Made by a program: the position numbers and the translations under genes. The notes under the pieces are model-generated. The model worked only from the letters and a program-made list of their open reading frames with translations, ran no database searches and was not told the DNA's origin. Below are positions 28,656 through 59,112 of a stretch of 64,000 nucleotides of DNA, in pieces; position 1 is the stretch's first letter; each line of letters starts with the position of its first letter. Location: NCBI GenBank assembly GCA_000002435.2, contig CM018793.1; one strand, 5' to 3'. The stretch comes from Giardia intestinalis (Eukaryota).

Positions 28656-29376
28656 ATTATAGCCCGCGTGCCGTTTTGCAGAGTGTGCGTCTCAGCTACC
28701 AGCGGTGTGGGGCGGAGCATCGCTGCTGGGGGCGAGAGTCTCGTATTGCGAGGCCGTACCGTTTGAATGGTTTGTAAGGTAATATCTGAGCCGCTGACCT
28801 TCAGAGTAATAGGTGACGCTACACCATTCTCGGAAAAGGTAAAAGAAGCAAGTTCGTCGGAGGTCATACGGCATTCTGGGCAGGAGAAGAAAATCTAATC
28901 TGTCTTTGGATAAGCAGAAGAGGGCTATGCTTTGATGGACACAACAAATCCGTCTACGGCCGCGCTGTGGTTCTGGACACGTCGCCCCAGTGTGAAGGTC
29001 TTATTCTTCGTAGATTCGGAAGATAGATATGAAGAAAGCAGGAAAGCCCTGTCCGTTCTACTCAATCCTCCAGCACACTCCTGCCCAAACGCTACGACTT
29101 GTCTTTCGGCACCATCAGAAGGAGCGCCTGCTAGTGCGAACTCCCCAACATTAGAAGCTAAGGACATGCTCTACCATCCAACTTGAGCGCAATTCCACCG
29201 ACTCACCGAGTGTTGAAGAGCGTAGCTGCAGAGACTCCTGGCGTTGTGATCCATCCAAAGTGTGTATCATGTCTCAGAAAGTGTACATTTATCACCAAAA
29301 AGTGTCCATTGAACGATTTTATTCTGCAATTTCAGCTTTAGCTTACAAATTCACAATTGTTTGCTGCTAGAATTGC

Positions 29377-34479: not shown

Positions 34480-34486
34480 CTGCACA

Positions 34487-34502
34487 GGGGCGCAGATTTC
34501 GG
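34487..34502 (+). promoter_or_regulatory. Histone-gene upstream motif, copy 2.
   Basis: Same 16-mer, at the same offset from the ATG as copy 1. Confidence 0.5.
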
Positions 34503-34536
34503 CTGCGGAAGGGGGGAAAAAGCGGGCGGGAAAGAA

Positions 34537-34929
34537 ATGTCGAAGGTGGAGACGAAGCGCCTGATGAAGAAGACGGAGGCCGGGGACAAGGGCGACGCGA
34601 AGCGCAAGCACAAGCGCCACGAGACGTACGCGACGTACATCTACAAGGTCCTCCGCTCGGAGAACATCCGCTCCGAGGCAGACACGGACCTCGGGATCTC
34701 GAACAAGGGCATGGAGGTGATGAACTCGCTCGTGAACGACCTCTTCGAGCGCATCGCGTCCGAGGCGTCGAACCTCGCGAAGATCAGCAAGCGGAACACG
34801 ATCGGGAAGAAGGACATCGAGTCCGCCGCGAAGCTCGTCATCCCGGGCGAGATCGGCCGCCTGATCCGCGACGAGGCCGACAAGGCCCTCTCGAAGTTCA
34901 CGTCCTCGAAGGAGTCCACGAAGAAGTAA
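34537..34929 (+). CDS. H2B: Histone H2B (130 aa), copy 2.
   Basis: Identical protein to copy 1. The stop is embedded in AGTAAAT. Confidence 0.9.
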   Translation: MSKVETKRLMKKTEAGDKGDAKRKHKRHETYATYIYKVLRSENIRSEADTDLGISNKGMEVMNSLVNDLFERIASEASNLAKISKRNTIGKKDIESAAKLVIPGEIGRLIRDEADKALSKFTSSKESTKK

Positions 34930-34930
34930 A

Positions 34931-35509
34931 TTATAGCCCGCGTGCTAGTATTAGAAGGAAGGCGCCTGCCAAAGCGAGTCCCAGAAGGCCTCGGCGTCGT
35001 GGAGTGCGCGAGAGGACCTCTAGTAGGAAAGGAGGGACCCGAGGCTGATCAGAGGCCGTGGCGTTTTTCATAGGCAAGAGGTCGCTTGCAAGCATCCCAG
35101 AGAGTAGGTATGCCCTGAAAGCATTAGCATCCGCAAATGCGCGGCAACGAGTTGAGTCAGCAAGAAGACCGGCTAGCTCGGCCTGATGGTTTTCGTGGAG
35201 ATTTGTGTTGACAATGAGAAAGTGGGGCAACCGGAGCTGCATGGCCTCCAAGTAAATCCCAGTCGCTGCGTGGCTAAAGATTACATCCGCGTCTTCAAGG
35301 TACGAAGCGAGCGATGGAGCGTAATCAAAGGAGGACACTTTGAGCCCAATGTTAACTGCAGAGGGCGGCACCTTGAATGGCGAGCTGCCATGCTGAACAG
35401 TCAAGTGGGTAACACCGACTCGGGCCAGCGCCTGAAGAACTTCCTCGTCGCCGAAAATGCAGACCAACTCGTCAAATCTCGTGGTCCCGACTGATGTGAA
35501 AACACGCAT
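34931..35509 (-). CDS. ALG13: ALG13-like UDP-GlcNAc transferase subunit (glycosyltransferase family 28 C-terminal domain) with a C-terminal hydrophobic segment.
   Basis: N-terminus MRVFTSVGTTRFDELV matches the Alg13 signature (M..VFVTVGTT.FD.L). Length is 192 aa. The C-terminus is hydrophobic (LLGLALAGAFLLIL). Confidence 0.65.
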   Translation of the reverse strand: MRVFTSVGTTRFDELVCIFGDEEVLQALARVGVTHLTVQHGSSPFKVPPSAVNIGLKVSSFDYAPSLASYLEDADVIFSHAATGIYLEAMQLRLPHFLIVNTNLHENHQAELAGLLADSTRCRAFADANAFRAYLLSGMLASDLLPMKNATASDQPRVPPFLLEVLSRTPRRRGLLGLALAGAFLLILARGL

Positions 35510-41439: not shown

Positions 41440-43950
41440 TGTCGCCGGCCGTGGCACCGGGGCGGTCTTCTGCTGTGCGGCCGCCCTTGGACATTGATCC
41501 GGGGGCTGGGAGCCTGGCGGGCCGCCACCCCTGGGCCAGCGGGTGTCCGGGCGAACCTCCCCACAGTCTGGAGCTGACGCCTGGGGAGCGGTAGCCGCTT
41601 GCACGGTGCCTGGCTCCTGGACGTGTTCCAGCTCATGGGCAAGCCTGAGATTCGTTGTTCTTGGTTCGACCGAGCCCCTGGGGGCACACAGACTCGAGGA
41701 GCCAGCAGTTTGAGCGACACAATGCGAGGGACCAGAGCGTCTCGGATCCATAGAGGGCGCCGCAGGTGGGCGCACAAGACCGACGTTGGTGCACTAGGTG
41801 TTATCATGGCGGGCTTCATGAATAGATGGGAAGCCACATGGAGCACCACAAGGTGAGAGGGTAAGCACTGTGTCCGTGTGTGAGGATGGCCTATGTCTAT
41901 CTCACGTAGCCGGGCTTCCTCCCGCAAAAACGGGTCATCAGGACGACGTCGACCTCTATGAGCCCGTCTGGATGACGCTGTGCCGTCCTGCGCTCAAGGT
42001 CCAGTTGCACGGAGCCATCCTCCTTAGTGCCTGCGTGGTGCTTGGTATCCACTCTTGTGAATGCGGAGCTCAACGGCTGCGCCGACACAGACTGAGCGTC
42101 TGTGGCGAGCCGAGCGGATTGATAGGCGGCTGGTCTGGGGAGGGTGTACAGGAGTGAAGCTAGTTGTTTCCTTGCACCTCAAAGCTAGCCAGGGCGCCGT
42201 CAGGTATGGCCCGGTGGGGGAGCCAGCGGCTAAGGCGTGCGTTGTGTTTGGTTCTGTGTGCTGTAGCTGAGGCCGCTGCCTGCGGGCAACATAGTGCCTA
42301 TCTTAGCGGCGGCCTCTTCCACTTTTGGGTGGTCGGGTGCTTTCCAAGGAGGTGGAGTCGAGCGTTCCGTTGGGTTCGGCGTATAGCTATTCTAGCAGGA
42401 TTAGTGCCTCACCTCCTGGTCTTGGCCCAGGCGCCGCGCGTCGGTGCGCCCACCTGCCCATCTGCTTGCCTCGGGCGCGGTGGAGCCACAGTGCAGAGCG
42501 TTAGGGGGAGGCGGCCACCCACATCTGCGCCTGGGCCCTCCTACCCCACGCCAGCCGTCTGCCCCGCCTGGTTCTCGCCGCTCGGGTCGACTGGTGCATC
42601 CACTCGCGCGGCGCCGCGGCGAAGCACACCGGCGGCGGGTCGCGTCTTTTCGGGCCTGTCTGACTTCTCGTCTAAACTATTTGGCGGACAGATTCCGAAT
42701 TGATTTTGATTCGGCCTCGGGTTGACCTGGTGTCCGGAAATAAAAAGCAGCGACCATGTCTGATGCCACCATTCCGACGCCGCCTCTGGAGCACCCCCCG
42801 AGGCCGCCCGGGATCTTCTCGAGGCTCCTCTGCATCGCTCGAGCCGTTCGAGCCCTCCCCCGCACCGTTCGAGCCGCGTTCCGCGCTGTGATGCGCCTGG
42901 ACCAGCTCACTGTCAGGTTCACGCTCGGCCAGGGGAGGGCTTGCCGCAAGGTCTCGGTTGTGCTCTCCCACGGGAGCCAGCCGAAGTAAACAGCGCCCAG
43001 GGCAGGCCGCGCAGGCTCTTGCCCTGCCCTCCGCAGAGGGGCTTGAGGAAAGGCCTTCCAGGCGCCCGCACGACACCTCGGTGCGACATACCGGCAGCGC
43101 CGGCGTCATTTTATTTTCCGGGAGAGATTCCGATTTGCAATGGTTTGGGTTTTTTGGAAGACGGCGCCGGGTCCCGGGGCGGCCCAGCGCGTGGCGCCGC
43201 GGCATCTCCGGCGGCCGAGAGGCTTGCGGGGGCGCGGGCCGCCGCTCCGACCCAGGGCGCAGGGCCAGCGGCGGCGGGGCAGAGTAGGGCCCGCGGGGCG
43301 GGAGTCCGGCCCAGAGTGTGGGATGGTTGTGGGTCTGCTTCGCCATCGTTGGTGCTGTCGTGGATTGGCCGATGCTCGGGCCCTCCCGGACCTGCGGGGT
43401 GCCTCGTGCGGTGACGATGGAGTCCTCCTTGATGTCGAAGGATGAAAGCCCCGTCGTAGTTGAGGCTGTGGAAGTGGACGAGCTGGGGCCTGTTAGCTAT
43501 TGCGAGCTTGACGAAGGCAGCCCGGACCACGGGGTGCTCCCTTGCACTGGACGGTTTACTCACCACTTAATGGAGGCACTGACCTGTGGCCACAGAGGTC
43601 CGCCACGAGATTGCCCAGAAGCAGCCAAGGTGTCTGTCAAGGGTCCGTGCGCATAAGCTTCACCGGCCTCTCTCAGAGTTTTTACTCTGTCCGTACTAAC
43701 GAGGGGGGACATAAAGAAGCTTATACTCAGGATATGGTTCGAATGGCTCCGGCTGCGAACCATACGTGGCCACTACAACAGGCCGGACCCCGGTGGGAAG
43801 TAGGCCGTCTAACATCGCCTTATCTCTGACGTCCTCCAAGCGAAGAAGCATGCGCGCAAAGCGGTGAGTACATGGGGAAGGGTCTGCCCAAGGCGCCCAC
43901 AGGGTGTTGCAGGGGCCTCTCCGGGAGGAAGGGCCGGAACCCTCCCCGCG
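41440..43950. other. Very GC-rich (about 65-70% GC) stretch of about 2.5 kb. It is apparently non-coding, has many overlapping stop-free ORFs on both strands, and contains repeat modules that recur inside the downstream element.
   Basis: Abrupt compositional change. ORFs overlap on all frames, which is the GC-rich artefact pattern. There is internal dyad symmetry (ccaaggaggtgg...cctcacctcctgg near 42340-42420). Modules are shared with 52468-52610. Confidence 0.5.
43064..43123 (+). repeat. Repeat module A (gcccgcacgacaccNNNgtgcgacatac...T-run...gggag). A second copy lies at 52468..52546.
   Basis: About 70% identity over about 60-80 bp, with the same ordered sub-blocks. Alignment was by eye. 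Confidence 0.5.
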
Positions 43951-43952
43951 CG

Positions 43953-43999
43953 CGTATATCTAGGGATATAGGGGTATATAGTATAGGTATAGGGACAGG
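43953..43999 (+). repeat. Left boundary motif: degenerate TAGGG-type units (cgtatatcTAGGGataTAGGGGtatatagtaTAGGtaTAGGGacagg).
   Basis: Shares an 18-bp identical core (gggatataggggtatata) and about 45 bp of overall similarity with 63457..63507, in direct orientation. Confidence 0.6.
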
Positions 44000-44671: not shown

Positions 44672-45361
44672 TTAAAAATAGAGCTTTTGGGCTTTTATTG
44701 CCACCTTGCGGCAAAGGGGGCACTCTATCGGCCTTCCGCGGATCCTTGCTTGCTCATCGAGGACATTAGCGCATTGTTCGCAGTAGGCGGCATGTCCACA
44801 GGGCATTAGAACGTGCGTGCGCTCCCTGTCTAGGCAGATCACGCACGCAGGCATGGTTACCTTATCGGGCAGACTGCGGCGAAGCATAGGGCGTATTCCG
44901 GCTGCTCGGCGCTTATAGCGCGCACAGGCCTTGCGGACGCGGCTATTTTCCTTCATCAACGCGCTTATCTCGCCTGTGAGCTCGTCGATGCGTTCCTCGG
45001 CTGCGTCGGCGACGTCTGCGGCCGCTCTGTAGTCGAGGATGGCCTCCTCCAGCTCCCTGTTTAGCTTTTCGCACTGTGCGTAGTATGTCTTAAGGCGAGC
45101 CTCGTAGTTCTTATGGAGGATCTCCTGGTCGAATTTTGACGCTTTTAGTGTCTCTCGCAGCCTCTTCAGCTTGAGGCCGCGGTGCGAGGACTGGGCGATG
45201 GCGTGGCGCAAAAGCTGCTTATCGGTCATATCAAGGTCCAGCTCGCTTACCGTGGTAGACGAGCTGGAGACCTCTTCCGATGGAGCGGGGCATGAGGGTC
45301 GCGCAGGAAGGCCTGCAATGCCAGGAAAACTCCCTATAACGTCAAAGACAGGCGTAATCAT
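44672..45361 (-). CDS. Coiled-coil protein with a C-terminal C3HC4 RING finger of IAP-like type (CVICLDRERTHVLMPCGHAAYCEQCA....CPLCR).
   Basis: RING Cys/His spacing at the extreme C-terminus matches the IAP/XIAP-type RING pattern. Confidence 0.65.
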   Translation of the reverse strand: MITPVFDVIGSFPGIAGLPARPSCPAPSEEVSSSSTTVSELDLDMTDKQLLRHAIAQSSHRGLKLKRLRETLKASKFDQEILHKNYEARLKTYYAQCEKLNRELEEAILDYRAAADVADAAEERIDELTGEISALMKENSRVRKACARYKRRAAGIRPMLRRSLPDKVTMPACVICLDRERTHVLMPCGHAAYCEQCANVLDEQARIRGRPIECPLCRKVAIKAQKLYF

Positions 45362-46067: not shown

Positions 46068-48542
46068 ATGACGACGAGCTACATCCAGAGCGGCGGCGCA
46101 AGCCTCGAAATCGACCCGCTGACCGGCGAACTCACGTACGAGGACTTCCTCAACGCCATTGAGAAGGCCGAGCTGGAGCCTATCCAACCACCCAAGATCG
46201 ACCTGGGGAGCCCGTATTCCATATTCGGCATTCCCCTTGTCGATCAGATGTTCTCAGACGTCCTCGAGAACATCGACCTCTTCAAACAGGACATCGACAA
46301 GTTCATCGACTACCTCAAACGGAAGATCAAGCTGACGATCAACTGGACTGTGGCGCTTGCCGGCGTCACAACGATCTCGGCGCTCATCGGCGTGATCACC
46401 AGGGAAATCACCAACGCCATCTTCAACATAAAGCGAAAGCAAGAGTGGGAGGACCTCAACGACCCGGACGCTAAGGCAGAGATGATCCCCCAGGCAGACA
46501 TAGAGGCCAAGGAGGAGATCAGCGAAATGAGCGGGGAGGACATCGAACCGCCAAGTCTAGGAGAGATCGAGGAGCCCGTGCTCGATGAAGAAGGGAACGA
46601 GATGTTAAACCCCGACGGCACAACAATGATGACAACCCGCATCGTAGAACTGCCGCGGGACATCTCGGACCAGTACGACCCGATCCCCGAGCCGGTCGAT
46701 CTCTCCGAGGAGCCTCTTACGCCCGAGCTGGCCGAAGAGATAGAGGAGAACGAGGGCGACATCACCCTAGACGTAATCAATAAGCTTATGATGGAGTTCG
46801 ACCCGCAGGGGGTCACCCACGAGCAGAACAACGAGTGGCTCATCGATAGAGGGGTCTACATCCTGCATATCCCCCATCTGTTCCTCAAAAGGGAATGCCT
46901 CCCAGGCGGAATAAGAGCCGGAATCATAAATGGCGCCTGCGGCATGATTAACGGCGTCGTCATGCCTGCCGTGGCGGAACGCTATTCGCGCACGTACAGG
47001 CGGAGAGTTCACGTCTGTCCCTACGAGGAATCCAAAACGCATGCAGACAAGGAGCAATCCCCGGGCGGCAACCTCATGAACGTCCACTGCTGCATGTGCT
47101 TTGAAAAGAAGCGTGTTCTTAAGAAGGGAGATCCCTTATGGGCCGCCAATGTCTGCACCTGCATGCCGCCCTGCGAGTGTCCGTGCCACGAACGCTCGAC
47201 GAGACACATAAGGTATCTGAAGAAGACCTGCAGATCGTTTGCTCAAGAGGCTCCGTTGACTGGCTGGTGGGTTGGTTCTGATTGTATGGGAGACAGTCAT
47301 AAAACATATGAAAAAGACGATTATAACTGTCGATTCTACCCTTATATCTGCTATGAAAATGAAACGTCCGAACGGATAACAGACAAGCCAGAAAGTCGGT
47401 TTAATGTAATTCAGATCTGCCCGTTCTGCCAGATAATGTATGCCTACATCAATATCGTCGGAAAAGGCTACAAGCTCCACCGCTCCAACACAGAGGTCTA
47501 CATCTTCTTCACGAAGGGCGCCAACTCGACGCTGCTCCTCGGCGAGCCGGCGAAGTATTTGGTAACCGGCCCGGCGACCAACAAGACCTTCGACTATATC
47601 AATAAAAACGATAGCGCCTTCGACGACGCCATCTGGGGCCGTAAACCGTTATTCGAGTACCAGGGGCCTATCCAATGCAAGTGCTCCATTGGTCGCCCCA
47701 TATGCACGGCCGCCTTTAAGGGTAATGCCAACGAAGCACACACCAACCTCGTCACATATATAAAGGGCCACGCGCAGAAGATCAAGTACATCTACATGCC
47801 GGACTTCGAGGTGACGGGCGGCGATCCCTGGTGGTACAACGACCAGCACGACTACCAGTCGATCAAGGACCTCTGCATCTTCGACGGCATCCTCGAGCAC
47901 AAGGTCCCCGAGCACGTCTACCGCTTCTACGAGTACCGCCGGCTCCTCGACAAGACGTGGTTCCCGCGGCTCTACCAGGACATCTACAACCAGCTCACCA
48001 AGGACTATCCCGACATTCCCTCAGGCATGGACCATCCCACGGCCAAGAAGTGGAAGAACTGGAAGGCCTGGATGGCGATCGACAAGTTATTGAACGACCT
48101 CATCCCCATCCCGGAGATCTACCCGGAGCTCGCGGACAACCCGAATCCCCTCTTCGCGCGAAAGCCGGTGGGCTGGGAGCAGGCCAGTGAGTGGGGGACA
48201 GAGGCCGTGCCGTACTCGCTTCGCCTTCCCGAGGAACTCCAGCGCATTAAGGACTACCTCATACTGCTGGACAAATACTACCCGGGCTGGAGAGCGTTTC
48301 GCGATGAGCACGATCCGGGCTGGTGGAGCGACTTCTGGCGGCAGATCCCCGTCATCGACAAGGACGCGCGGACGACCATCTTCCTCTACAGCGACCTCCG
48401 GATCGACAGGTATAAATTCGAGATCACCGGGGAGCCCGAGTGGTGGCGCGACTTCTGGGGCCCCACGATCAAGGACAACCTCCCCGACCCCGAGAGACCC
48501 CGCTCGTACCAGGAGGTCCTCGAGGTCGTAAAGGATTACTAA
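46068..48542 (+). CDS. 824-aa predicted type-II or single-pass membrane protein with a large Cys-rich ectodomain.
   Basis: Hydrophobic segment WTVALAGVTTISALIGVIT about 90 aa from the N-terminus. This is followed by an acidic linker and a Cys-rich region (CMCFEKK...CTCMPPCECPCH...CPFCQ). High GC3. A-rich initiator aaaaataaATG. Confidence 0.6.
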   Translation: MTTSYIQSGGASLEIDPLTGELTYEDFLNAIEKAELEPIQPPKIDLGSPYSIFGIPLVDQMFSDVLENIDLFKQDIDKFIDYLKRKIKLTINWTVALAGVTTISALIGVITREITNAIFNIKRKQEWEDLNDPDAKAEMIPQADIEAKEEISEMSGEDIEPPSLGEIEEPVLDEEGNEMLNPDGTTMMTTRIVELPRDISDQYDPIPEPVDLSEEPLTPELAEEIEENEGDITLDVINKLMMEFDPQGVTHEQNNEWLIDRGVYILHIPHLFLKRECLPGGIRAGIINGACGMINGVVMPAVAERYSRTYRRRVHVCPYEESKTHADKEQSPGGNLMNVHCCMCFEKKRVLKKGDPLWAANVCTCMPPCECPCHERSTRHIRYLKKTCRSFAQEAPLTGWWVGSDCMGDSHKTYEKDDYNCRFYPYICYENETSERITDKPESRFNVIQICPFCQIMYAYINIVGKGYKLHRSNTEVYIFFTKGANSTLLLGEPAKYLVTGPATNKTFDYINKNDSAFDDAIWGRKPLFEYQGPIQCKCSIGRPICTAAFKGNANEAHTNLVTYIKGHAQKIKYIYMPDFEVTGGDPWWYNDQHDYQSIKDLCIFDGILEHKVPEHVYRFYEYRRLLDKTWFPRLYQDIYNQLTKDYPDIPSGMDHPTAKKWKNWKAWMAIDKLLNDLIPIPEIYPELADNPNPLFARKPVGWEQASEWGTEAVPYSLRLPEELQRIKDYLILLDKYYPGWRAFRDEHDPGWWSDFWRQIPVIDKDARTTIFLYSDLRIDRYKFEITGEPEWWRDFWGPTIKDNLPDPERPRSYQEVLEVVKDY

Positions 48543-48543
48543 T

Positions 48544-51500
48544 TCACAAGCTGTAGTTCTCGACCGAGCTCCTGGCCCAGTACCAGATCGCCACCCGCTG
48601 GCCGCCGCCAATCTTGCCGATGCTTTTATCATATGCAAAGCGTAGCGTGACGTTGATGTAGCTGTCATTGGAGTTGCCTTCGCGATAGTCGTTCCAGGCC
48701 ACGAAGACGCGGTCGTAGGACGTCACCCAGACGTCGTAGGGCACAATCGAGACGATGCAGTCGTTGCTCTTGCTGATGGCGTCGCTGGGGAGGCTGGACA
48801 TGGAGATCCGCATGAAGCCGTTGCCGTCCGTCGTCTGGCCGGGGATCCACTTCCGGACGAGGTACTGGTACTTCAGCTCTCGGCAGACATAGGTCAGCTT
48901 GTTTGACTGGGCGTTGAGCGTCGCGATGCTGTCCCGGTTCAGCCGGATCGAACTCTCAAAGCCGGAGACGGTCGACTCGAGCCTACTGAGCCTGCTCGAT
49001 GCGGAGCTCAGCGAGCCCTGGAGGTTGCTCACCGTGACTTTGAGGGAGGCGATCTGGTCCCGGTTCTGCCCAACGGACCTCTTGAGAGTCGTTACTTCGT
49101 CTGTCCATATGGCGATGGTATCTGCGTTGTTCTTGATCCTGGTCTCGTTAGCCCTAATTTTGCCTTCGCAATTGGCCACCCTTGTTGTAAGAGCTGATAG
49201 AGCGGTTTCTTGCGTCCTAGTCGTGTCCCAGAGCCCCCGTATGTTGCTCTCGGCGGCGTTGACCCGCGTCTCGAGGGCCGCATAGTCGGTTGTATTGCTC
49301 TTGAGGTCGTTTATGCTAGTCTTCATCTCAGAAATGTCGCTCTCGTTAGTCGCTATGCGCTCTTCATAACCAGCGAGTCGGCCAGACAGAGTGTTGTAAC
49401 GGTCCGATATCTCTGTAATAGTCACATTGAGTCTCTCGATGGTCGCCCGGTCCTCCTCCCTCTCCCTCTCGAGCGCTGCGACCCGGGCCGACAGACCTGA
49501 CACGTCCTGAATAACCGCAGAATCGTCCTTTGAACCCTCCTTGGACTCTAACGCATCGAGGCGCTCGGTAAGCCTTCTGATCAGCTCGTCTTGCGCCACA
49601 ATGCGCTCGGTGAGGAGCCTCCTCTGCTCGGCCGACCGCTCCTGCTCCTCTTCGATCTGGGCTTCCAAAGCATCGTTGCGGGCAGAGGTCAAACTGCTGA
49701 TGGCCTTAACCTGGTACTGCAGCTCCGCGACGAGCTCCCGCAGGTAGTTGTAGGCGCCCTCGAGCTCGGTCCGGATCCCGCTCATGTCTATGATGCCGCC
49801 GACCGGGTCTGTGAACGAGATCCCGTTCCGCTCGAAGAATTGGACAACGACTGTCATCAGGATCTCGATGCGGTTCCGGAAGTCCATGATGTCATTCTGG
49901 TTCTCGGTGAGTCTCTCGATCCGCTTGGCGTGGACCTTCGCCTCCTCCTGCAGCGCTTCGATGGCTACTTGGTCCTCTCCGGCGATGCTCTGAAGCACCT
50001 TGATGTGATTCTTCGCCCGGGCAGCCTCCAGATGCACGAGGGACACGTCCCGGTTGATGTGCGAGAACTCGTTCCAGATAAACTCGAAGCGGTAGAAGAG
50101 GTCGTCGGTCAGGAACTTGTAGATCCTCTTAAACTTGTAATCGTGCTCGTCGAGCCGGTTCTTCGCCTGGATCGCATAGGCAAGGCCTGTGGAGGCGACG
50201 GTCAGGATAGCCGCGTCCAAGGCATAGCCTACGGCCATGTTGATCACGTTGAGCTTCGATCCGATGCCGCCTGTGTTTCCGCCCTTGTTGATTTTGTCCT
50301 GGAGTTTCTTGTAGTCGTTGTCATCGGCCAAAAGCTTCGCCTTGAGGTACTTGACGGCCGCCTGGAGTTTCGTTATCTCGAGGTCGAGCTTCTTGTTGTT
50401 CCGCTCCAAATTCTGGATCTTGGTCTCGTGCTTCAGGGCCCGCTTGCCCAGATAACGCGTCTGGTGCGTGACACGGCCCTGCGAGAGCTTCTTGAGGTTC
50501 TTGATCTTCAGATAGCTGCCCCCGATCTTGTAATTGCCGCCGATGTGCTTGCGAAGTCCGTTGTCCTCGTCTCCGTCTTCGTCCTGGCCCTGCAGCTGGC
50601 GGTAGAGCCACATCGTCTGCTGGTTGACCGTGGCCGCCATGAAATCTGCCCGGGACACGCGGCCGTAGGGAGAAAGCTTCTGGTTGTTCCTGCCAGCCAG
50701 AGAGCCCCCGACCATCTCATAGAGGTACTGGATCTGCTGGAAGAGGGGCTGCTTGCGGAAGTCATCCTGGGAGATGGCGTTCCCTATGCCGATCTTGCCC
50801 TCCAATGCGTCAGGGATGAGATCGTTATCCCTGGTTTTCTTCTTCTTGAGCTTCCGAGGCTTCTTGGGCTTCTGCTCCTTCTTCTTCTTCTTGAGCAGCG
50901 CCTTCTGGTCCGCCATCGGTAAGAGCTCCTCTCGGAAGGCGTAGTTCCCCATCATCATCCACTGGAGGGCGACGATCTTCTGCACGATCGTGAGCCCCCG
51001 CATGTACTCGGACTTGTTCGTCGTGTCGCGCATGTACTCCTCGGGCTGGAAGTTGTTGTTAAAGCCGACGATCGGGGCCGCCTTCTTCATCGCCTTCGTG
51101 AGCTTCCCGCCGTTGAGGGCGATGTTGAAGATGCCCTTCGGCGTATTCTTGAAGCCGATGATCTCCTCCATGAACTTGACAAGAAATACCAGACACGGGC
51201 CCTTCAACGGAGACATCCCATCTAACATGTTTCCGTTGTAGTCTTTGATCTCGTAGTTGTGGGCATTGCAGTAGTACCGGAGAGCACTGGCCTTGTCTTT
51301 TTCGGTCATGAGCTGCGTCGCGCAATGGACGGTCTTCGGACCAAAATATCCCTGAAGACGATGAGTCAGATTTATGTTCAGATTGCTTCCCAAGAGAGCC
51401 CTCCGTTGATCGTCTCTCAAAGCATTACGCTCGCAGAACTCCTTGAGCACATTGAAGTAATACTCTGACGCAAAGCTAAGCTGATCGACGACCTTCTGAA

Positions 51501-51561
51501 GGCTCTCCTTCGTCACGAACTTCCCATCCAACTGCTCCGTGCGGATGATGAGGTTGTTCAT
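48544..51561 (-). CDS. 1005-aa protein with a globular N-terminal domain, a Lys-rich NLS-like stretch (KKKKKEQKPKKPRKLKKKK), a long central coiled-coil and a C-terminal globular domain.
   Basis: Uninterrupted ORF with strong heptad periodicity in the middle third. Confidence 0.6.
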   Translation of the reverse strand: MNNLIIRTEQLDGKFVTKESLQKVVDQLSFASEYYFNVLKEFCERNALRDDQRRALLGSNLNINLTHRLQGYFGPKTVHCATQLMTEKDKASALRYYCNAHNYEIKDYNGNMLDGMSPLKGPCLVFLVKFMEEIIGFKNTPKGIFNIALNGGKLTKAMKKAAPIVGFNNNFQPEEYMRDTTNKSEYMRGLTIVQKIVALQWMMMGNYAFREELLPMADQKALLKKKKKEQKPKKPRKLKKKKTRDNDLIPDALEGKIGIGNAISQDDFRKQPLFQQIQYLYEMVGGSLAGRNNQKLSPYGRVSRADFMAATVNQQTMWLYRQLQGQDEDGDEDNGLRKHIGGNYKIGGSYLKIKNLKKLSQGRVTHQTRYLGKRALKHETKIQNLERNNKKLDLEITKLQAAVKYLKAKLLADDNDYKKLQDKINKGGNTGGIGSKLNVINMAVGYALDAAILTVASTGLAYAIQAKNRLDEHDYKFKRIYKFLTDDLFYRFEFIWNEFSHINRDVSLVHLEAARAKNHIKVLQSIAGEDQVAIEALQEEAKVHAKRIERLTENQNDIMDFRNRIEILMTVVVQFFERNGISFTDPVGGIIDMSGIRTELEGAYNYLRELVAELQYQVKAISSLTSARNDALEAQIEEEQERSAEQRRLLTERIVAQDELIRRLTERLDALESKEGSKDDSAVIQDVSGLSARVAALEREREEDRATIERLNVTITEISDRYNTLSGRLAGYEERIATNESDISEMKTSINDLKSNTTDYAALETRVNAAESNIRGLWDTTRTQETALSALTTRVANCEGKIRANETRIKNNADTIAIWTDEVTTLKRSVGQNRDQIASLKVTVSNLQGSLSSASSRLSRLESTVSGFESSIRLNRDSIATLNAQSNKLTYVCRELKYQYLVRKWIPGQTTDGNGFMRISMSSLPSDAISKSNDCIVSIVPYDVWVTSYDRVFVAWNDYREGNSNDSYINVTLRFAYDKSIGKIGGGQRVAIWYWARSSVENYSL

Positions 51562-51622: not shown

Positions 51623-52150
51623 ATGGCTACTCTCAAAGACCTTCTGAACACCAATCCAATCGGCATGAGCGAGGAGAACTACGCGCAGCTGCTGCGCTCC
51701 CTCGAGACCCTCAACTACGGCCAGCTGCGCCAGTACGTGCTGGCCCGCCTCAAGCCCCTCGTCGACAACGTCCGCAAGCATCTCCAGGAGGACCCTGTCG
51801 GCTCGATCGACCAGGTCCTCGACTTCCAGGACGCCTTCTGCACCAAGGAGCTGATCCAGACCGTCCGCTGGAACCTCGCGCAGTTCCAGGTGAACGCGAA
51901 GAACCCCCGCAAGGCGCCGGCCGTGCGCAGCAAGGAGGCGACGGAGCTCTCGTACGCGACGGACTACAGCTTCCGGCGCATCGTCTACCCGATCGTCGCA
52001 GACCTCGCGAAGATCCTCTACCTCCGCGCCGAGGAGGCGAACGTCCGGAACCCGAACAGCCTCGTGCGCTACATCCCGCTCCTTATCATGTTCAACCAGC
52101 AGAACGCAATCGGCTACCCGCCCCGCGTCGCCTTCCTCGTGACGCCAGTA
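51623..52150 (+). CDS. Hypothetical protein of about 175 aa with an uncertain 3' end.
   Basis: The ORF continues without a stop through the hairpin and repeat region to 52594, encoding a low-complexity P/R/G-rich tail. That tail is probably non-coding, so the true end is unresolved. Alternatives are a frameshift, a pseudogene or an assembly issue. Confidence 0.35.
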
Positions 52151-52172
52151 GTATATATCCTTGTGGTGCCCA

Positions 52173-52220
52173 CTTTCGTTTTTTTGGGCCTGCACGGGGC
52201 TGGGCCCAAAAAAACGAAAG
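52173..52220. repeat. Perfect 18-bp-stem hairpin (ctttcgtttttttgggcc / ggcccaaaaaaacgaaag) with a 12-nt loop.
   Basis: Exact reverse-complement arms were read from the sequence. The T7/A7 tracts give a terminator- or origin-like appearance. Confidence 0.8.
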
Positions 52221-52467
52221 CGTCCCCCACAAGTGCGTCTGCGTGTGCCGGTCCGCCCACTAGGCTCCCACACGCTGGCGCTCGTTTACCTACTTTTCAA
52301 CAGAATAAAAAACCTGTAAATTTTCAAAAAAAATCGCGGCCTCCCCCCGGAACCGCCCAGCGTGGTGCCGTGCACGCCGGGAGGAGACCGCGTTGTCCTT
52401 GGATGTGTGTGATGCGTTCGCGCCCGGTTCAGCTGCCGGCCAGCCTGGTCTGCTCCCTGCCCCCGGG

Positions 52468-52627: not shown

Positions 52628-53074
52628 ATGACGGATGAGCATTTGGGTGGCGGCGACGTTCAACCTGATAGGGACGATGGCGACGCTGGTGTGTCTGGGG
52701 ATAACGGCGTCGTCGTGCAAGAAGACAGCGTCGATCATGCAGGAGATCCTGGACAGACAGAAGGCCCGCCAACAGCAGAGCCAGCCACAGTACCAGCAGG
52801 CGCCGACTCCCCCGCTGTACCAGACGAGCCAATGGATGAGTCAGAGCTACTAGCAGAGCTCGCGTCTGATAAGATTACCATGCCGATGATGGTTATCACT
52901 ATGGGAGGAAGGTTCTTCGACTGCAAGGACGCTGAGCTCACTGTCACGATGAAGGTAAACGACGAGACGATGGAAGGATGCTATGTCTTGATTGGAGATA
53001 CTGTTCAGGAGGGGGAGGATGGAATAAAGTTAATGGGGTTGGTGTTCAAGCGCAAGGACGTGCCGGCAGAGTGA
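52628..53074 (+). CDS. 148-aa protein: acidic disordered N-terminal half plus a small C-terminal domain.
   Basis: ORF with A-rich initiator (aaaataaaatATG). Stop in AGTGAAT. Confidence 0.5.
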   Translation: MTDEHLGGGDVQPDRDDGDAGVSGDNGVVVQEDSVDHAGDPGQTEGPPTAEPATVPAGADSPAVPDEPMDESELLAELASDKITMPMMVITMGGRFFDCKDAELTVTMKVNDETMEGCYVLIGDTVQEGEDGIKLMGLVFKRKDVPAE

Positions 53075-53076
53075 AT

Positions 53077-54543
53077 TCACTTGTAGAAGAGCTGGAAGAT
53101 GGGGGCCCAGTCGCCCTCTATCTTGGCAGAGAAGGGCCTTGCGTCGACAGAGCCGTCGGGGTAGGTGACTATGTGGTCTGCGCGGAAGTGTAACTTGTTG
53201 GTCGGCTTTTCCAGCTCGTGCCACGCCCAGAACAGCGGGTTGATGACTTGGTAGCGGTCGTGGATGCGGCGGGCAGAGACGATGGGATATCTCTCGTGGT
53301 ACTCTTTGCAGTAGAGGTTGATGCGGCTGTCCTTGTTATACCAGACATACGGCGGAATCTTTATGCGCGTTGTAGGAGAGATCGCCTCATAGAGCTTGAT
53401 AAGATCCGTCTTCCTGATGTGCCAGGCAGTGATAAAGTCTGGCGTTATCATTAGCATGGTTACCGTGGTCATCAGAACGAGATCGTCTCCATCTAACCAG
53501 GCCGCGATATAGGGACCGCTTGGGTTAGGCCCTATTTCTTTCAAGAAGTAGTTGTTGATGTATTTGAAGATGTTGACCATGGCGGTCTTAGTGATGACTG
53601 TTCCGCGGAGCGACAGGAAGTACGGGTCCTTGTGGGGGTAGAAGCGTCTGACCTTCTTGCTTGTTACCTCGATATATGCGTCTTTGCCATATTCGAAGGT
53701 GAAGGTCGGCTCAAGGAAGAAAAAGTCAGGGACGCTCAGCTTGGCGACGGGCGAGTGCAGGAGGATGGCATGAGGCTTTTCGAAACGAAAAAACCCCTGC
53801 TTCTTTTCGTGTTCTGCAGACTCCGTGATGAAGAGTTCGAGATAGACGGGAGCGAGGGTGAATGGGCGGTTGTTTTGGTCAAGGATCTCTATGTCGATGA
53901 TTCGGCCCTCATTGATGCGGTGGTTAACGGCGATGTGGGGGTTGATGAGGGAGAAGTTGTTTGTGATGTGCATAACGCCAATGCAGGCCGGCATTGTCAT
54001 GTTGGAGTCAGACGTGCCGCAGACGTTCTTGCAGATGATCTGGAGATACTTGAGGGTGACGGGAGGATAGGGGATGTCTGAGAGGAGGATGCTCCGTTCG
54101 CCTTGCGGAAGGTTTCGGGAGAATAGTTGCTTGGTGGTTCCGAAGCCAAGTGCCCAGGCAGCCGACGGAGAGAGGTTGAGATTTATGAAGTGGTTCTCTG
54201 CTGTGATTGCTTGTGTTAGTATGAAACGAACAAAGCCATCCTCGGTAATGTTTATTTCGACGTTAGCAGATATGCTGTGTGAGATCAGGTCAGCAAGGTT
54301 CTTAGCGACTCCGTCGAATTCGAATAACGTCTGGTTGGCGGTTACGTCGGTAATGTTGAAGGCGCCGATGCTGTCGAATATAGAAAGCGGGGAGTATGCG
54401 CTAACGAGACTCATATAGTGGCCTGTCGGATAGTGAGAGAGGATTTCGCGGATCTTGTTGCTGTATATCGCATGGTTTACGAGACCCTTTCCTATATTTT
54501 TAATTGTTATAACACCTGTCTGCTTTGTCTCGAGTCTCAGCAT
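53077..54543 (-). CDS. 488-aa hypothetical protein, beta-rich by composition. It could be a structural or virion protein.
   Basis: Uninterrupted ORF. It shares a 12-bp A/T-only divergent promoter (tattttttaatt) with the ATPase gene. Confidence 0.55.
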   Translation of the reverse strand: MLRLETKQTGVITIKNIGKGLVNHAIYSNKIREILSHYPTGHYMSLVSAYSPLSIFDSIGAFNITDVTANQTLFEFDGVAKNLADLISHSISANVEINITEDGFVRFILTQAITAENHFINLNLSPSAAWALGFGTTKQLFSRNLPQGERSILLSDIPYPPVTLKYLQIICKNVCGTSDSNMTMPACIGVMHITNNFSLINPHIAVNHRINEGRIIDIEILDQNNRPFTLAPVYLELFITESAEHEKKQGFFRFEKPHAILLHSPVAKLSVPDFFFLEPTFTFEYGKDAYIEVTSKKVRRFYPHKDPYFLSLRGTVITKTAMVNIFKYINNYFLKEIGPNPSGPYIAAWLDGDDLVLMTTVTMLMITPDFITAWHIRKTDLIKLYEAISPTTRIKIPPYVWYNKDSRINLYCKEYHERYPIVSARRIHDRYQVINPLFWAWHELEKPTNKLHFRADHIVTYPDGSVDARPFSAKIEGDWAPIFQLFYK

Positions 54544-54555
54544 TATTTTTTAATT

Positions 54556-55500
54556 ATGCCGCTCGATCTCTCGCTCAAGACTGCGTCTACCAAGGACGCG
54601 CTCGAGTTCCGGGAGAAGCGCTTCCCGGTCTCGAACAACTGCTTCATCCCGATCGTGGGTGTGACGGGCTCTGGGAAGACGACGATCATCATCAACCTCT
54701 TCCGTCTTCTCAATGAGATCTACCGCTACAGCCACATCATCTATGTCGCCGCGAACTACCGCCAGGACGCGACGCTCAGGGCAGCGAACCTCACCCAGGT
54801 AGTTCTCGAGGACTACGTGGAGTTCGAGCAGGAGCGCGAGCATACGAAGCACGTCTACACGGCGAGCACCGATCTGCTGGACGTGGCCATCATGAAGATC
54901 TACGAGCTCCAGGACCTCCACGCGAAGGCCGAGGAGCTCCGGGAGCAGAGGAGGCAGATAGCGAGGGCGATCAAGATCGCGAAGGACCAGCAGCCAGAGC
55001 TCCTCGAGGACCTTGTTGCCCGCTACATCACAATCACCGAGGAGATCGACTCCATAGCGCCGACCAGCGACGGCACGCGTCCGAAGGTCCTCCTCGCCAT
55101 CGACGATAACTCGGGTGCCAAGGCCTTCAAGGTCAACTCTGAGAACAACCTTGTGTACCGCCTCATCAGGGACAGGAGACACCACAACACCTCTGTCCTC
55201 GCCTGCATCCACAACCTCAAGGCCTTCCACGCGCCCTTCCGCATGCATGCGACGGAGTTCATCTTCACGGCAGGTCTCAACAGCCAGGCGCTCAAGGATG
55301 TTTACGAGGACCTGGGGAACATCTTCCCGATCATCAACGAGAAGGCCCAGGACGGCACGAAGGCGTGCGACCTCTTCTGCGGGCTCTACGACAAGGTGAC
55401 GGGCGTCTACCCGAACGACGAGAGCCGCCGCTACTACTTCCTCACCGTCTTCCGTAACGCAAGGGAGCTCAGGGAGAACTTCGACACTGTCCTCAAGTAA
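54556..55500 (+). CDS. Poxvirus A32-like (FtsK/HerA-superfamily) genome-packaging ATPase, with an inserted coiled-coil segment of about 100 aa.
   Basis: The motif order and sequences match the NCLDV/Polinton A32 family. Walker A is FIPIVGVTGSGKTTIIINLF (vaccinia A32: FRMVLTGGSGSGKTIYLLSLF). Then IIYVAANY (A32: IFLFTPVY). Walker B is KVLLAIDDNSG (A32: RFLLIFDDVGD). The family-typical RRHHNTSVLACIHNL matches A32's GRHLNTSIILLCQTY. The true ATG at 54556 is preceded by 'ttttttaattATG'. Confidence 0.75.
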   Translation: MPLDLSLKTASTKDALEFREKRFPVSNNCFIPIVGVTGSGKTTIIINLFRLLNEIYRYSHIIYVAANYRQDATLRAANLTQVVLEDYVEFEQEREHTKHVYTASTDLLDVAIMKIYELQDLHAKAEELREQRRQIARAIKIAKDQQPELLEDLVARYITITEEIDSIAPTSDGTRPKVLLAIDDNSGAKAFKVNSENNLVYRLIRDRRHHNTSVLACIHNLKAFHAPFRMHATEFIFTAGLNSQALKDVYEDLGNIFPIINEKAQDGTKACDLFCGLYDKVTGVYPNDESRRYYFLTVFRNARELRENFDTVLK

Positions 55501-55506
55501 ATAAAA

Positions 55507-55896
55507 ATGCGTGCTCACACCCAGGCGGACGACTACGGTCGCGTCTACACTGTCTCACACCTCCCCTCCTGCGCTGTCCTGCCGACGGGGTCTCCTCCGT
55601 ATGCGCCTCCCCGCGTCGTGCAGGCCTTCAAGGATCCCCTTGCCGGCACGCAGGTTCCCTTCAACTCGAAGAACGACCCGTCCGTGCACCGCATCGTGAA
55701 GGCCCGCCGCTTCGCCTCCCAGTCGAACCTCATCCCCCTCGACTGCAATAGCAACGCAAGGCACATCCAGGTCCCCATGCCCTCCAAGACCCTGACCCAT
55801 GCGATGGCGAAGCGCATCGACCCGTCACTCGCAGACACAAAGAGGCGCACCGCAAAGATGGAAGAGGCCAAGATGCGCATGCGCACGAAGAAGTGA
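55507..55896 (+). CDS. 129-aa basic protein, a possible DNA-binding or core protein.
   Basis: ORF starting directly after the ATPase stop (AGTAAATaaaaATG). Arg/Lys-rich. Stop in AGTGAAC. Confidence 0.4.
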   Translation: MRAHTQADDYGRVYTVSHLPSCAVLPTGSPPYAPPRVVQAFKDPLAGTQVPFNSKNDPSVHRIVKARRFASQSNLIPLDCNSNARHIQVPMPSKTLTHAMAKRIDPSLADTKRRTAKMEEAKMRMRTKK

Positions 55897-55916: not shown

Positions 55917-56462
55917 ATGACAGCCAACGTTGACGTTCAGGCGATCGTCGCGGCGGTCCTCGAGAAGCTCAAGGAGCCTGCAGCTCCGAAGAGCGTCTAT
56001 GTGCCCCCGCAGGCCAAGCAGGCGAAGACGCGCATGAAGGAGGTCCCGATCACCGCCCGAGAGGACCCTGACATCGACCCCTACAAGGAGCTCCCCGAGA
56101 TCAACCGCGAGACCCACGAGTACATCTATTGCAAGAATGGGAGGTGGAGGGCCGTCCCCAAGCAGACCCCCGAGCAGATCAAGGAGCGCACGGAGAAGAT
56201 GCTCGAGTCGCGCCTCAGGAAGCGCGCCGAGGCCACCAAGAGGCTCGAGGAGAAGCTCGCCCAGATAAGGGCCGAGAAGATGGAGGAGAGCATGGTCGAG
56301 ACCGTGGCGCCCCCCAAGAGCGAGGAGGAGCACGAGTCGGGCGACGAGGGAGACCCGGAGCTCTCGAAGATCATCGCCGACCACCTCGCCGAGAAGCAGC
56401 GCAAGGAGAGCCATGCAGCAAACGTGTCAAGCGTGTTCGGCGTCTCGGTCACGCATAAGTGA
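55917..56462 (+). CDS. 181-aa highly charged K/E-rich protein.
   Basis: ORF with initiator aaaaaaaaataATG. Probably largely helical or disordered. Confidence 0.45.
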   Translation: MTANVDVQAIVAAVLEKLKEPAAPKSVYVPPQAKQAKTRMKEVPITAREDPDIDPYKELPEINRETHEYIYCKNGRWRAVPKQTPEQIKERTEKMLESRLRKRAEATKRLEEKLAQIRAEKMEESMVETVAPPKSEEEHESGDEGDPELSKIIADHLAEKQRKESHAANVSSVFGVSVTHK

Positions 56463-56478: not shown

Positions 56479-59097
56479 ATGGCGATCGCCATTAACCCCG
56501 ATGTCCGCGAGCTGGACTTCAGCGACAACGTCAAGGTCTCGAAGTTCATGCAGGACTTCTCGGACTTCAGGGCGAAGAAGTGGATCACCTACAGGCCAGT
56601 GAACGCGCCCAGCGAGAGCGAGCCCTTCTTCGGGGGGACGAGACAGTTCATTATCAACATGGGCACGGGTCACATCCTCGACACAATGTATTCTGGGCTC
56701 TGGTTTGAACTTTACTTCCAGAATAATAGTGATGTGGTGTTGTGGCCTATACAGGCTTCTCTTCCTCGCACTTCTTCAGCTTGGATCGAGTCGGTGACGT
56801 TCCAGCATTCGAAGGTGGCAGCCCACATAGATGAACGCCTCTGCGATTACAACGCTGTCAGCACCATCTTTATTCCCGCGAAAGACATCCTCAGTATGAG
56901 GCAGACCTTTTTCACTACGGCAAATCAGCAGTTTGCAGACAATAATATGTTCAATGATGCCGTAGCCGATGATATATATGGCAAGCTTATGCCTGTAGGC
57001 TCGTTGACTACTTCTCGCATATCCCAACAAACCTTTTCTTTCTTCATCCCGCTTCGTTATTTATCAACCATCTTCAATTCAGGCAGATACTTCTTCCCAA
57101 GCCTGCTTCGCGGTAATGGTGAGATGACTCTATCTATTCGCTCTGTTGCTGCGTCTCTTTCAGAGGTGTTTGGTGGTTCTCGCAGTTCTATGGCCATTTA
57201 TATGAATCCTAATTTAAATGATTACCTTTGGTCAACTGCCGCTTCTGACAAAAAGATTAACTGGGATGTTTGTATGTATAATATGAAGTTAGTTACGCTC
57301 TGTCTCGATAACGCTTTTCTTACCAAAGAGTACAACGCCTTCATTGCCAGCGGCCGCAAATTTATTCGCTCTTTCAAAGCCTATAACTACCAGTTCTACC
57401 AGGTCAAGCAGGGTTATAATCGAATTGAGATAGCGAACACCCATCAGTCGATATCGCACATTGTTCTTGCGTTCCAGGTGCCGTATTCTGTACGCGTCGA
57501 TGGTCGAGCTATTTCGATGATGGATAATCAGTCATTTGGTATTCAGAAAACAACAGCGGGCACAACAAGCCAAACGATTAATGCCAAGAACCAGGGCGCA
57601 TTTGTTCCGACACGAGCAAGACCTTCTATGACAGGTCACGCCGGTAATAATTATCAGCCAGCGCCAGACAACCCGTACATTTCAGCATCAAGTCCAAACC
57701 CTCCTTCTGGTACTCGCGCATTTGGTAGAAAGGCGTTTGATCTTGGTACTAGTATAATGTGCAAGATATGGGATAGTGCTAAAAATCTGAACTGGTCATT
57801 TTTAGCACAACCGACTCTTGCCCTTGCGGCCAGTGGCCTTCCTAAGTCAGTACAACCTCTCGTAACAGCAACAGCCAATATGTTAGTTCAGAGTTCCTTG
57901 CAAAGCGCCACTAGAGCTGGAAGTGTTAAAAGACCTGCGCCGAGAACGTCCCAAGAGAATGATTTGTTAAAGCTTCAAAGAAATAATGCCCAAAGCCTAG
58001 CTAGAGGTTTTATGGATCCAAAGAATCGTGATGTTATAGGGACGTTTATTGACGAATTTAACAAATCGACAGGCGGTACTCTTGGAATAACCGAATTTAA
58101 TGCTATAGCACATCAGTTCCTAACTATGAATAATGCCAAAAGTAATTTAACACAAAAACAAAAGGATGTTTTTACAGATCTTATGAATATGAAGAAACTT
58201 GATCCTGTCTCAATTAACTTGATAGCTTATTATGCAACAGATGATGAGAGTGGTCCGTCAGCCATCACCAATGACCAAGTGAAGAATTATCTTTTGAAAC
58301 ACAACATAGATGAAGCTGACATAGATGAGGTGACCGATATTATAGCACGTCATAATTTAGAAACGGCAGGGGTATCTGTCTCCCAGGGAAGACTTGCTTT
58401 AAACGGTTTGGAAATAGATACCAATACCCAGAAAGTCGTTGCCGAGACCATGGATCGAATATTCGGAAGCGATGATACGTTAAAGACTGCCTTTACTGAG
58501 AGTCAGAAGACGTACTTGGCAAAAATTCTCGCAGAGCTGACTGACCAGAACCACTTGGATCATCACAAGTTCTTTACGCAAATGTTCCCCGCCGAGCCAA
58601 AGCAACTCTTTGATCTCGGCATGCACGTTATCGAGAACCTTCAGGTGTACCGCGGGACCGGTAACGGTGAGACGGTCTTTTCAGAACCAATTAACGGAGA
58701 CATGTTCTACCACATAAGTAGGGAGGCAATGGGCGATTCTGCTGAGAACCATCCATTTTTCAGTCTTGAGAATTTCAACAAGGACATGGCAGTAATTGTA
58801 ATTAGTCTCAACACTTTCATGCGCGACGCTCACCACGAGTTCTGGGACGGGTTCAGCACGAACCGCGTTGCTGATCGTCTCTATGTGGAGTTCAATAATG
58901 AGGAGTTTGTCATTCCGGATCTGTCTAAGATTCAACCTTGGTTTGATGATATCGGTTACCAGGATAATTGTATCGGCCTAGACTGCAAGGTCTTCACGAT
59001 CTACGACAACATCTACTTCATCGACCGCGACAACAACCTGAACGTGTCCGACACGCTCCTGCCCCTCCAGGAGGGCCGCATTCCTGGGTCTGACTGA
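56479..59097 (+). CDS. 872-aa candidate double-jelly-roll major capsid protein (large, with insertions), or another virion structural protein.
   Basis: The N-terminal segment W.TYRPVN......FFGG.RQFIINMG.GHILD.MY..L.FEL follows the pattern of the first jelly-roll B-C strands of NCLDV/Polinton major capsid proteins (TNF...FG..V...I.R.GDL......E..L). This is a pattern-level resemblance only. Confidence 0.35.
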   Translation: MAIAINPDVRELDFSDNVKVSKFMQDFSDFRAKKWITYRPVNAPSESEPFFGGTRQFIINMGTGHILDTMYSGLWFELYFQNNSDVVLWPIQASLPRTSSAWIESVTFQHSKVAAHIDERLCDYNAVSTIFIPAKDILSMRQTFFTTANQQFADNNMFNDAVADDIYGKLMPVGSLTTSRISQQTFSFFIPLRYLSTIFNSGRYFFPSLLRGNGEMTLSIRSVAASLSEVFGGSRSSMAIYMNPNLNDYLWSTAASDKKINWDVCMYNMKLVTLCLDNAFLTKEYNAFIASGRKFIRSFKAYNYQFYQVKQGYNRIEIANTHQSISHIVLAFQVPYSVRVDGRAISMMDNQSFGIQKTTAGTTSQTINAKNQGAFVPTRARPSMTGHAGNNYQPAPDNPYISASSPNPPSGTRAFGRKAFDLGTSIMCKIWDSAKNLNWSFLAQPTLALAASGLPKSVQPLVTATANMLVQSSLQSATRAGSVKRPAPRTSQENDLLKLQRNNAQSLARGFMDPKNRDVIGTFIDEFNKSTGGTLGITEFNAIAHQFLTMNNAKSNLTQKQKDVFTDLMNMKKLDPVSINLIAYYATDDESGPSAITNDQVKNYLLKHNIDEADIDEVTDIIARHNLETAGVSVSQGRLALNGLEIDTNTQKVVAETMDRIFGSDDTLKTAFTESQKTYLAKILAELTDQNHLDHHKFFTQMFPAEPKQLFDLGMHVIENLQVYRGTGNGETVFSEPINGDMFYHISREAMGDSAENHPFFSLENFNKDMAVIVISLNTFMRDAHHEFWDGFSTNRVADRLYVEFNNEEFVIPDLSKIQPWFDDIGYQDNCIGLDCKVFTIYDNIYFIDRDNNLNVSDTLLPLQEGRIPGSD

Positions 59098-59112
59098 GTG
59101 AATGGAATAAAA

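Follow-up and report, generated by a model that had tools for sequence, protein, structure and literature searches.

The question raised by this 64,000-nucleotide stretch of the Giardia intestinalis genome (GCA_000002435.2, contig CM018793.1; the whole stretch is called the window here) is what kind of protein is encoded by the open reading frame (ORF) at 56479..59097 on the + strand, and to what kind of genetic element it belongs. The ORF, whose 872-amino-acid (aa) product had been likened to the major capsid proteins (MCPs) of nucleocytoplasmic large DNA viruses (NCLDVs) and Polintons, is confirmed at these positions; it opens with ATG and corresponds to GL50803_16690 (XP_001707476.1; UniProt A8BF42). 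The gene is currently annotated as 'hypothetical protein', and in the literature searched it appears only under that name and as a polymerase chain reaction marker for assemblage typing. Its N-terminus, MAIAINPDVRELDF, is almost invariant over the first 30 residues across 38 homologues, which makes the ATG start credible. On the strength of structural modelling, GL50803_16690 is very probably the double-jelly-roll (DJR) MCP of an endogenous Polinton/Maverick-like double-stranded DNA (dsDNA) virus element in the G. intestinalis chromosome.

Regarding the fold, an AlphaFold2 model was built with an alignment of the family (39 sequences) as input and with templates switched off. The predicted fold of GL50803_16690 is a double jelly roll, in which a single chain forms one eight-stranded jelly roll after the other. 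The conserved N block (aa 1-345; 56479..57513, +) contributes jelly roll 1, a linker helix and the first three strands of jelly roll 2, as assigned by DSSP, with a predicted local distance difference test score (pLDDT) of 70-88; eight strands lie within residues 53-275, the helix spans residues 278-290 and three strands lie within residues 295-333. The conserved C block (aa 701-872; 58579..59094, +) supplies the remaining strands of jelly roll 2 (716-726, 772-776, 800-809 and 834-847). Between the two blocks, whose pLDDT is 70-88, lies a hypervariable insert (aa 346-700; 57514..58578, +) that is predicted, with low confidence (pLDDT 24-66), to be helical or disordered, and it is because of this insert that the mean pLDDT of the whole model is only 55. 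An independent search method and library led to the same fold. The values listed for the model against known capsid proteins are 20.3 for p72 of African swine fever virus (ASFV), 19.9, 18.3 and 17.3 for MCP variants of Paramecium bursaria chlorella virus 1 (PBCV-1), 18.6 for faustovirus, 17.9 for mavirus, 16.8 for Sputnik, 15.8 for the D13-type scaffold of Orf virus, 14.5 for PRD1 P3, 14.2 for Sulfolobus turreted icosahedral virus, 13.1 for PM2 and 10.4 for adenovirus hexon. The original prediction of an MCP-like double jelly roll is supported in that the model does contain jelly rolls and no confident homology to a cellular protein family came to light. The signature on which it leaned, at residues 35-80, fared less evenly. 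In the model, residues 34-82 include strands 34-38, 53-61 and 73-82 (pLDDT 69-88), and the signature forms the first strands of jelly roll 1; by sequence methods, however, it does not rise above chance and, since all sequence searches were negative, it is not statistically demonstrable.

The notion of a very large MCP with insertions also holds, since compact homologues of about 505 aa are entirely without the 355-aa insert. Insert length ranges from 355 to 506 aa in the long forms and is 18 aa in the three clusters of compact homologues, and the core of the protein without the insert, about 505 aa, is of typical DJR MCP size. Among 35 long-form MCPs, mean pairwise identity is 75% in the N block, 20% in the insert and 77% in the C block. 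The insert exits jelly roll 2 after its third strand and, in the model, is most likely located in the D'E' loop of that jelly roll. In the capsids of PBCV-1, ASFV and adenovirus the D'E' loop faces the exterior, so that the insert would form an exposed tower, comparable to the hypervariable loops of adenovirus hexon, and would set host or strain specificity or antigenicity. As in other DJR viruses, three MCP copies would assemble into a pseudo-hexameric capsomer.

The MCP gene is embedded in a capsid block with the order 148-aa gene, penton-like gene, A32 ATPase gene, 129-aa gene, 181-aa gene, MCP gene, rve-like integrase gene, 773-aa gene and 276-aa gene. A packaging ATPase of the FtsK/HerA superfamily (A32-like) is co-encoded by GL50803_25071 (54472..55500, +), which matches Pfam Pox_A32 (E 1.1e-5, 25.5 bits against a cutoff of 22.8) and carries the Walker A motif GVTGSGKT; it would pump DNA into the shell. 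The 488-aa product of GL50803_16693 (53077..54543, -), whose best fold matches are penton proteins, is the candidate vertex protein and would occupy the five-fold vertices. Between the ATPase and MCP genes lie GL50803_2633 (55507..55896, +), encoding a conserved basic protein of 129 aa (pI 10.5) that is possibly a core or DNA-binding protein, and GL50803_2631 (55917..56462, +), encoding a K/E-rich protein of 181 aa with a 194/195-aa homologue in the compact elements described below. Downstream of the MCP gene, the rve-like integrase candidate GL50803_34151 (59098..60141, +) comprises 347 aa when read from a GTG and is annotated as 342 aa from 59113. With regards to the surroundings expected of a morphogenesis module, the ATPase thus lies above threshold and both small proteins are in place, whereas the integrase is recognised only by a sub-threshold rve match.

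The remaining members of the block are less easily named. The 148-aa acidic protein GL50803_1623 (52628..53074, +) is encoded by the first gene of the block, and contigs from several strains start just upstream of it. The 773-aa protein GL50803_25075 (60138..62459, +) mirrors the architecture of the MCP: conserved ends (aa 1-75 and 588-767) surround a hypervariable, acidic and Pro-rich insert of about 450 aa that is missing from the compact forms (319-333 aa). It has no Pfam match, and its family profile gave none against the Protein Data Bank (PDB); a C-terminal motif resembling the penton-like protein was rejected (hhalign probability 0.17%). Two long-form genes, those of the 773-aa protein (about 450 aa) and of the MCP (about 355 aa), thus each carry a large hypervariable insert absent in the compact elements, and this pairing may point to common selection acting on the exposed parts of a virion. 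The last gene of the block, GL50803_92651 (62585..63415, -; 276 aa, annotated as 218 aa), is a homologue of the 198/201-aa gene of the compact elements, and its family profile retrieved nothing from PDB sequences.

Compact relatives of this block, found on contigs of 18.9-19.9 kb and encoding MCPs of 505-509 aa, carry a fuller set of genes. They encode the MCP, the integrase-like protein, a 319-333-aa protein, a 198-201-aa protein, a protein-primed DNA polymerase B (pPolB) of 1148 aa, the penton protein, the ATPase and homologues of the 181-aa, 824-aa (N-terminus) and 1005-aa proteins of the window. The pPolB is intact (DNA_pol_B_2, E 1.8e-41), and the set is that of Polintons/Mavericks, a recognisable protease excepted. 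One compact element, ERZ27273579:contig_3874 (loci L010 and L012), has been fully reconstructed as a linear molecule of 18,931 bp bounded by 238-bp terminal inverted repeats (TIRs) at 99.6% identity, as is usual for Polintons of 15-25 kb; the other compact contigs measure 19.8-19.9 kb. Its terminal palindrome is TTTGCACTTGTGTGCAAA, and at one end the assembled sequence turns back on itself for about 26 nt; a hairpin end, a replication junction or an artefact of the long reads could explain this. The same assembly holds both this compact element and a Giardia-type contig with a long-form element, and their GC contents are similar (45% and 46%). Compared with the compact element, the gene order of the window copy is rearranged. 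No name for the compact-element proteins exists in any source checked. A GGTTCGAGGCC box close to the termini of the compact elements had suggested integration into a tRNA gene; the idea was dropped when ARAGORN detected no such gene either in the window or in six loci. A deoxynucleoside kinase gene occurs inside the compact element and beside long-form elements in DHA2 and P15 (L009 13635-14450; L001 15541-16498; L007 14412-15470), and the Giardia genes for this kinase at these sites may be element-borne.

Long-form copies have been examined in G. duodenalis DHA2, in P15 (two copies) and in four further assemblies. In every Giardia-type locus among them the gene order is constant: 148-aa, penton (-), ATPase, 129-aa, 181-aa, MCP, integrase-like, about 770-aa, about 250-aa (-), RING (-), about 810-aa and about 980-aa (-). 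The order of the capsid block is common to assemblages A1, A2 and E and the four further assemblies, with all nine genes open in every genome examined. In locus L008 (64-2499), a degraded and inverted second copy of the 181-aa, 129-aa, ATPase and penton genes stands beside an intact copy, indicating that copies of the element decay.

When the reference genome of WB C6 (ATCC 50803; WB), to which exact-sequence look-ups assign the window, is compared with three other genomes, dN/dS is 0.05-0.09 for the ATPase, 0.06-0.17 for the 129-aa gene and 0.05-0.24 for the integrase-like gene. In the N and C blocks of the MCP pN/pS is about 0.2 with synonymous sites near saturation; in the insert, where the alignment is unreliable, it is about 0.7, and for the more divergent genes of the block the ratios are saturated or higher. 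Strong purifying selection acts on the MCP core and on the genes of the ATPase and the integrase-like protein. Divergence between WB and P15 is unevenly distributed: the integrase-like, 773-aa and 276-aa genes show a dS of 0.05-0.15 and 93-98% aa identity, while dS reaches 0.70 for the ATPase and aa identity falls to only 56% for the MCP and 49% for the penton-like protein. This mosaic fits recombination that would have swapped capsid modules between assemblages.

Several observations weigh against a capsid protein of a Polinton-like element. The capsid assignment rests on the predicted structure, because at the sequence level the protein resembles no capsid family. The single protein has zero matches in Pfam; at E <= 10, none of the 39 family members matches a capsid family, Capsid_NCLDV included, and the family profile finds no capsid chain among PDB sequences. 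Searches of all PDB sequences with phmmer and the family profile returned noise only, inside the insert, and a search of PHROGs returned nothing. A profile search of 1.84 billion representative proteins gave 11 matches, all in the same MCP family, and scans of IMG/VR and Joint Genome Institute metagenomes with the family alignment yielded no relatives. The integrase candidate scores below the threshold of Pfam rve (20.4 bits against a gathering score of 32.6), although a sub-threshold match recurs in all five orthologues (best E 6e-4). In this family D20 and D76 (the latter in 'RADMEF') are invariant, and the position 36 residues after D76 is an invariant Asn112, not the Glu that retroviral integrases use as a catalytic residue 36 residues after their second Asp. 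Alignment of the family with the HIV-1 integrase core (its sequence entered by hand) by hhalign gave a probability of 0.1%, and the family profile found only a spurious ribosomal S4 match in the PDB, so that the assignment as an integrase is weak. As for pPolB, the window copy retains only a remnant of about 150 aa (51713..52153, +), which matches aa 10-155 at the N-terminus of the 1148-aa polymerase (tblastn, 38% identity, E 3.5e-14). No bounding inverted repeats of at least 25 nt were found at 40-64 kb, direct repeats only, and the window ends inside the locus. Pfam profile HMMs detected no adenain/Ulp1-type maturation protease among the window genes or in the compact element, a search that could miss a divergent protease. 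At the protein level, a quantitative proteomics study did detect the penton-like GL50803_16693, which speaks for the module, though from one unique peptide with four spectra; within this single-peptide basis, it was the most up-regulated protein (1.90-fold with host-cell secretions, 1.55-fold with host-cell co-incubation). The MCP is missing from the proteomics tables checked. We know of no virions.

One rival reading is that GL50803_16690 is no capsid protein at all but a beta-sandwich protein of the cell, be it a lectin or a scaffold, or that the modelling itself produced the double jelly roll; the lack of sequence homology to capsids and the mean pLDDT of 55 from an alignment of only 39 sequences speak for it. 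This is nevertheless very improbable, since the independent method and library agree on the fold, the model was built without templates and the neighbouring genes are other hallmarks of DJR viruses. An inert fossil, in which the viral element is in decay and its ORFs, without present function, have stayed open by chance, would suit the truncated PolB, the gene order rearranged with respect to the compact element and the degraded second copy in L008. We consider it improbable, if somewhat less so, in view of the low dN/dS of three genes and the low pN/pS of the MCP core with its near-saturated synonymous sites, the nine genes open in all genomes examined and the detection of one member as protein.

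Harder to set aside is a domesticated capsid module, in which the shell, vertex and packaging genes would be kept for the use of the host, either in a gene-transfer or vesicle-like particle or as a defence against the autonomous virus, like integrated virophages and polinton-like viruses. Loss of the polymerase and the lack of TIRs in the window point that way, as do the intact ORFs and purifying selection in A1, A2 and E together with an ATPase 90% cluster that also includes assemblage B, the response of the penton-like protein to host signals, and the presence in ERZ27273579 of both a chromosomal long form and a compact element with its polymerase. On the other hand, genomes hold several copies, some of them decaying (two in P15; the degraded one in L008), the MCPs form at least 35 clusters that differ mainly in the hypervariable, presumably exposed insert, capsid genes appear to be swapped as a mosaic between assemblages and the flanks of the long-form loci differ between strains; for these reasons a mobile, host-interacting virus fits better than a fixed host gene, and we regard domestication as possible but not likely. 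A module that is either domesticated or dependent on a helper retains at least an appreciable minority share of the probability. As for the Polinton-like virus element preferred here, the window copy, having lost its polymerase, would probably need either a helper, in the form of the compact relatives with their polymerase, or the replication machinery of the host. That the virus is active or inducible, with particles still being made, is possible though rather doubtful. It may tentatively be proposed that a Polinton-like dsDNA lineage lives in Giardia, with the compact linear genome of about 19 kb (TIRs, pPolB) as the autonomous virus and the chromosomal long forms, with their hypervariable capsid towers, as inducible proviruses or satellites that would go on making particles, possibly triggered by host-cell signals.

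Among known systems, the closest comparison is with the MCPs of Polintons/Mavericks, e.g., of Trichomonas vaginalis and animals (Krupovic et al., 2014, PMC4028283; Yutin et al., 2015, PMC4642659). The DJR fold, predicted here, is held in common, as are a co-encoded A32-type ATPase, a single-jelly-roll vertex protein (here a candidate) and an rve-like integrase (here weak), and the complete relatives add a pPolB and a TIR-bounded genome of about 19 kb. The Giardia MCP differs in having no detectable similarity to any described MCP profile and in carrying, within jelly roll 2, a hypervariable insert of 355-506 aa; the element differs in lacking a maturation protease recognisable by Pfam and, in the window copy, PolB and TIRs, and in possessing additional lineage-specific genes for RING, 824-aa Cys-rich and 1005-aa coiled-coil proteins. 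Unlike virophages (mavirus MCP 6g45 and penton 6g41; Sputnik V20 3j26), the Giardia element gives no sign of dependence on a giant virus, uses another replication gene (pPolB) and shows no sequence similarity to them. Compared with the MCPs of NCLDVs (ASFV p72 6ku9, the Vp54/MCP variants of PBCV-1, faustovirus), the Giardia MCP has no match to Capsid_NCLDV, and the element, of about 20-25 kb, holds no NCLDV core gene besides the common A32-type ATPase; with a gene context that is Polinton-like rather than giant-virus-like, the NCLDV half of the label first given to the ORF is unsupported as a matter of membership. In adenovirus hexon the towers are structured beta/loop regions, whereas the Giardia MCP has one large insert in jelly roll 2, predicted helical or disordered, and the relationship is remote.

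To the left of the capsid block, genes related to the element continue for several kilobases. The 1005-aa coiled-coil protein (48544..51561, -), annotated as 'SMC family protein', is a homologue of the 918/1022-aa terminal gene product of the compact elements (34-38% identity, E 1e-114); it belongs to the element, and the SMC label probably reflects coiled-coil similarity only. The 824-aa Cys-rich protein GL50803_16697 (46068..48542, +) has an N-terminus homologous to the 244/247-aa protein of the compact elements. A RING-finger protein of 229 aa (44672..45361, -; Pfam zf-C3HC4_3, E 1.4e-12) comes next, a paralogue of which follows the 276-aa gene in every long-form element. Directly after the PolB remnant, a hairpin with 31-nt arms (52160-52190 and 52203-52233, 87% complementary) may mark the truncation point. 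Further left, the window carries ordinary host genes (Rad3-related helicase, ankyrin repeat protein 1, DUF4485 protein). A single 6966-aa ORF fills its first third (125-21025), and a 478-bp direct repeat (28194-28671 and 34469-34945, 99.2% identity) flanks a 1700-aa ORF (29377-34479) with no Pfam match; the pair could be of the long-terminal-repeat type or a recent segmental duplication.

Two families of short direct repeats stand at conserved junctions, the putative limits of the element. Iterations of TATAGGGG make up a boundary motif situated after the 276-aa gene and before the RING gene that comes next (63455..63491, +); the motif has a second direct copy 19.5 kb away at 43949-43985 (3 matches against 0.01 expected by chance), and it occurs elsewhere at L014 11111-11161, L008 17148-17178 and about L007 886. 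The repeat GCCCGCACGACACC..GTGCGACATACCGGCAGC stands just left of the capsid block and its 148-aa gene, at 42602, 43064 and 52467 in the window, at 4.7-5.9 kb in L008 and at the head of L013; in several strains contigs begin immediately behind this repeat, and this points to an element boundary present in multiple copies. After the boundary motif, a GC-rich tract of degenerate GGGC/GGCA repeats occupies 63520-63800, and the sequence at 42-44 kb is GC-rich as well (63.6% GC). We infer two head-to-tail units, the left one (about 43.1-52.4 kb) without the capsid block and the right one running from about 52.5 kb past the window end. A circular or permuted element, which the gene order of L004 had brought to mind, was rejected, as DNA comparison revealed a diverged second RING/824/1005 copy (RING, about 810 and about 960 aa) beyond the window end. 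Searching for exact copies of the 218-aa protein, so as to follow the sequence past that end, retrieved short contigs only.

To our knowledge, the only virus known from Giardia is the dsRNA giardiavirus. Parts of the element family have nevertheless been seen before: a Giardia ATPase (GI 253746051) and pPolB (GI 559178763) were included in Polinton trees, the ATPase grouping with Polinton ATPases of T. vaginalis and E. invadens, and the MCP tree of the same study contained no Giardia sequence (Yutin et al., 2015, PMC4642659). Nothing in the literature searched links Giardia to a double-jelly-roll protein. Because the 2015 trees had the ATPase and PolB of Giardia and no MCP, the present findings add the missing capsid genes to a half-recognised element family, and GL50803_16690 is supported as a new Polinton-like MCP that is unrecognisable by sequence. 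It is unusual in that its sequence has diverged completely from other MCP families, in its single hypervariable insert of very large size and in the occurrence of the element in a polymerase-less yet conserved chromosomal form.

For a major human parasite, this places in the reference genome a morphogenesis module that is conserved and of which at least one gene is expressed. The hypervariable capsid insert, together with the mosaic exchange, offers a handle for strain typing and population genetics, and may indicate gene flow between assemblages. According to two papers of 2021 (PMC8097293, PMC7805220), Polinton virions had not been observed by then; since Giardia can be cultured and manipulated, particle formation by a Polinton is directly testable in this organism. 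If a living virus lineage is indeed present, it would for the first time allow Polinton virions to be seen in a system that is both culturable and genetically tractable, and diplomonads would have their first DNA virus.

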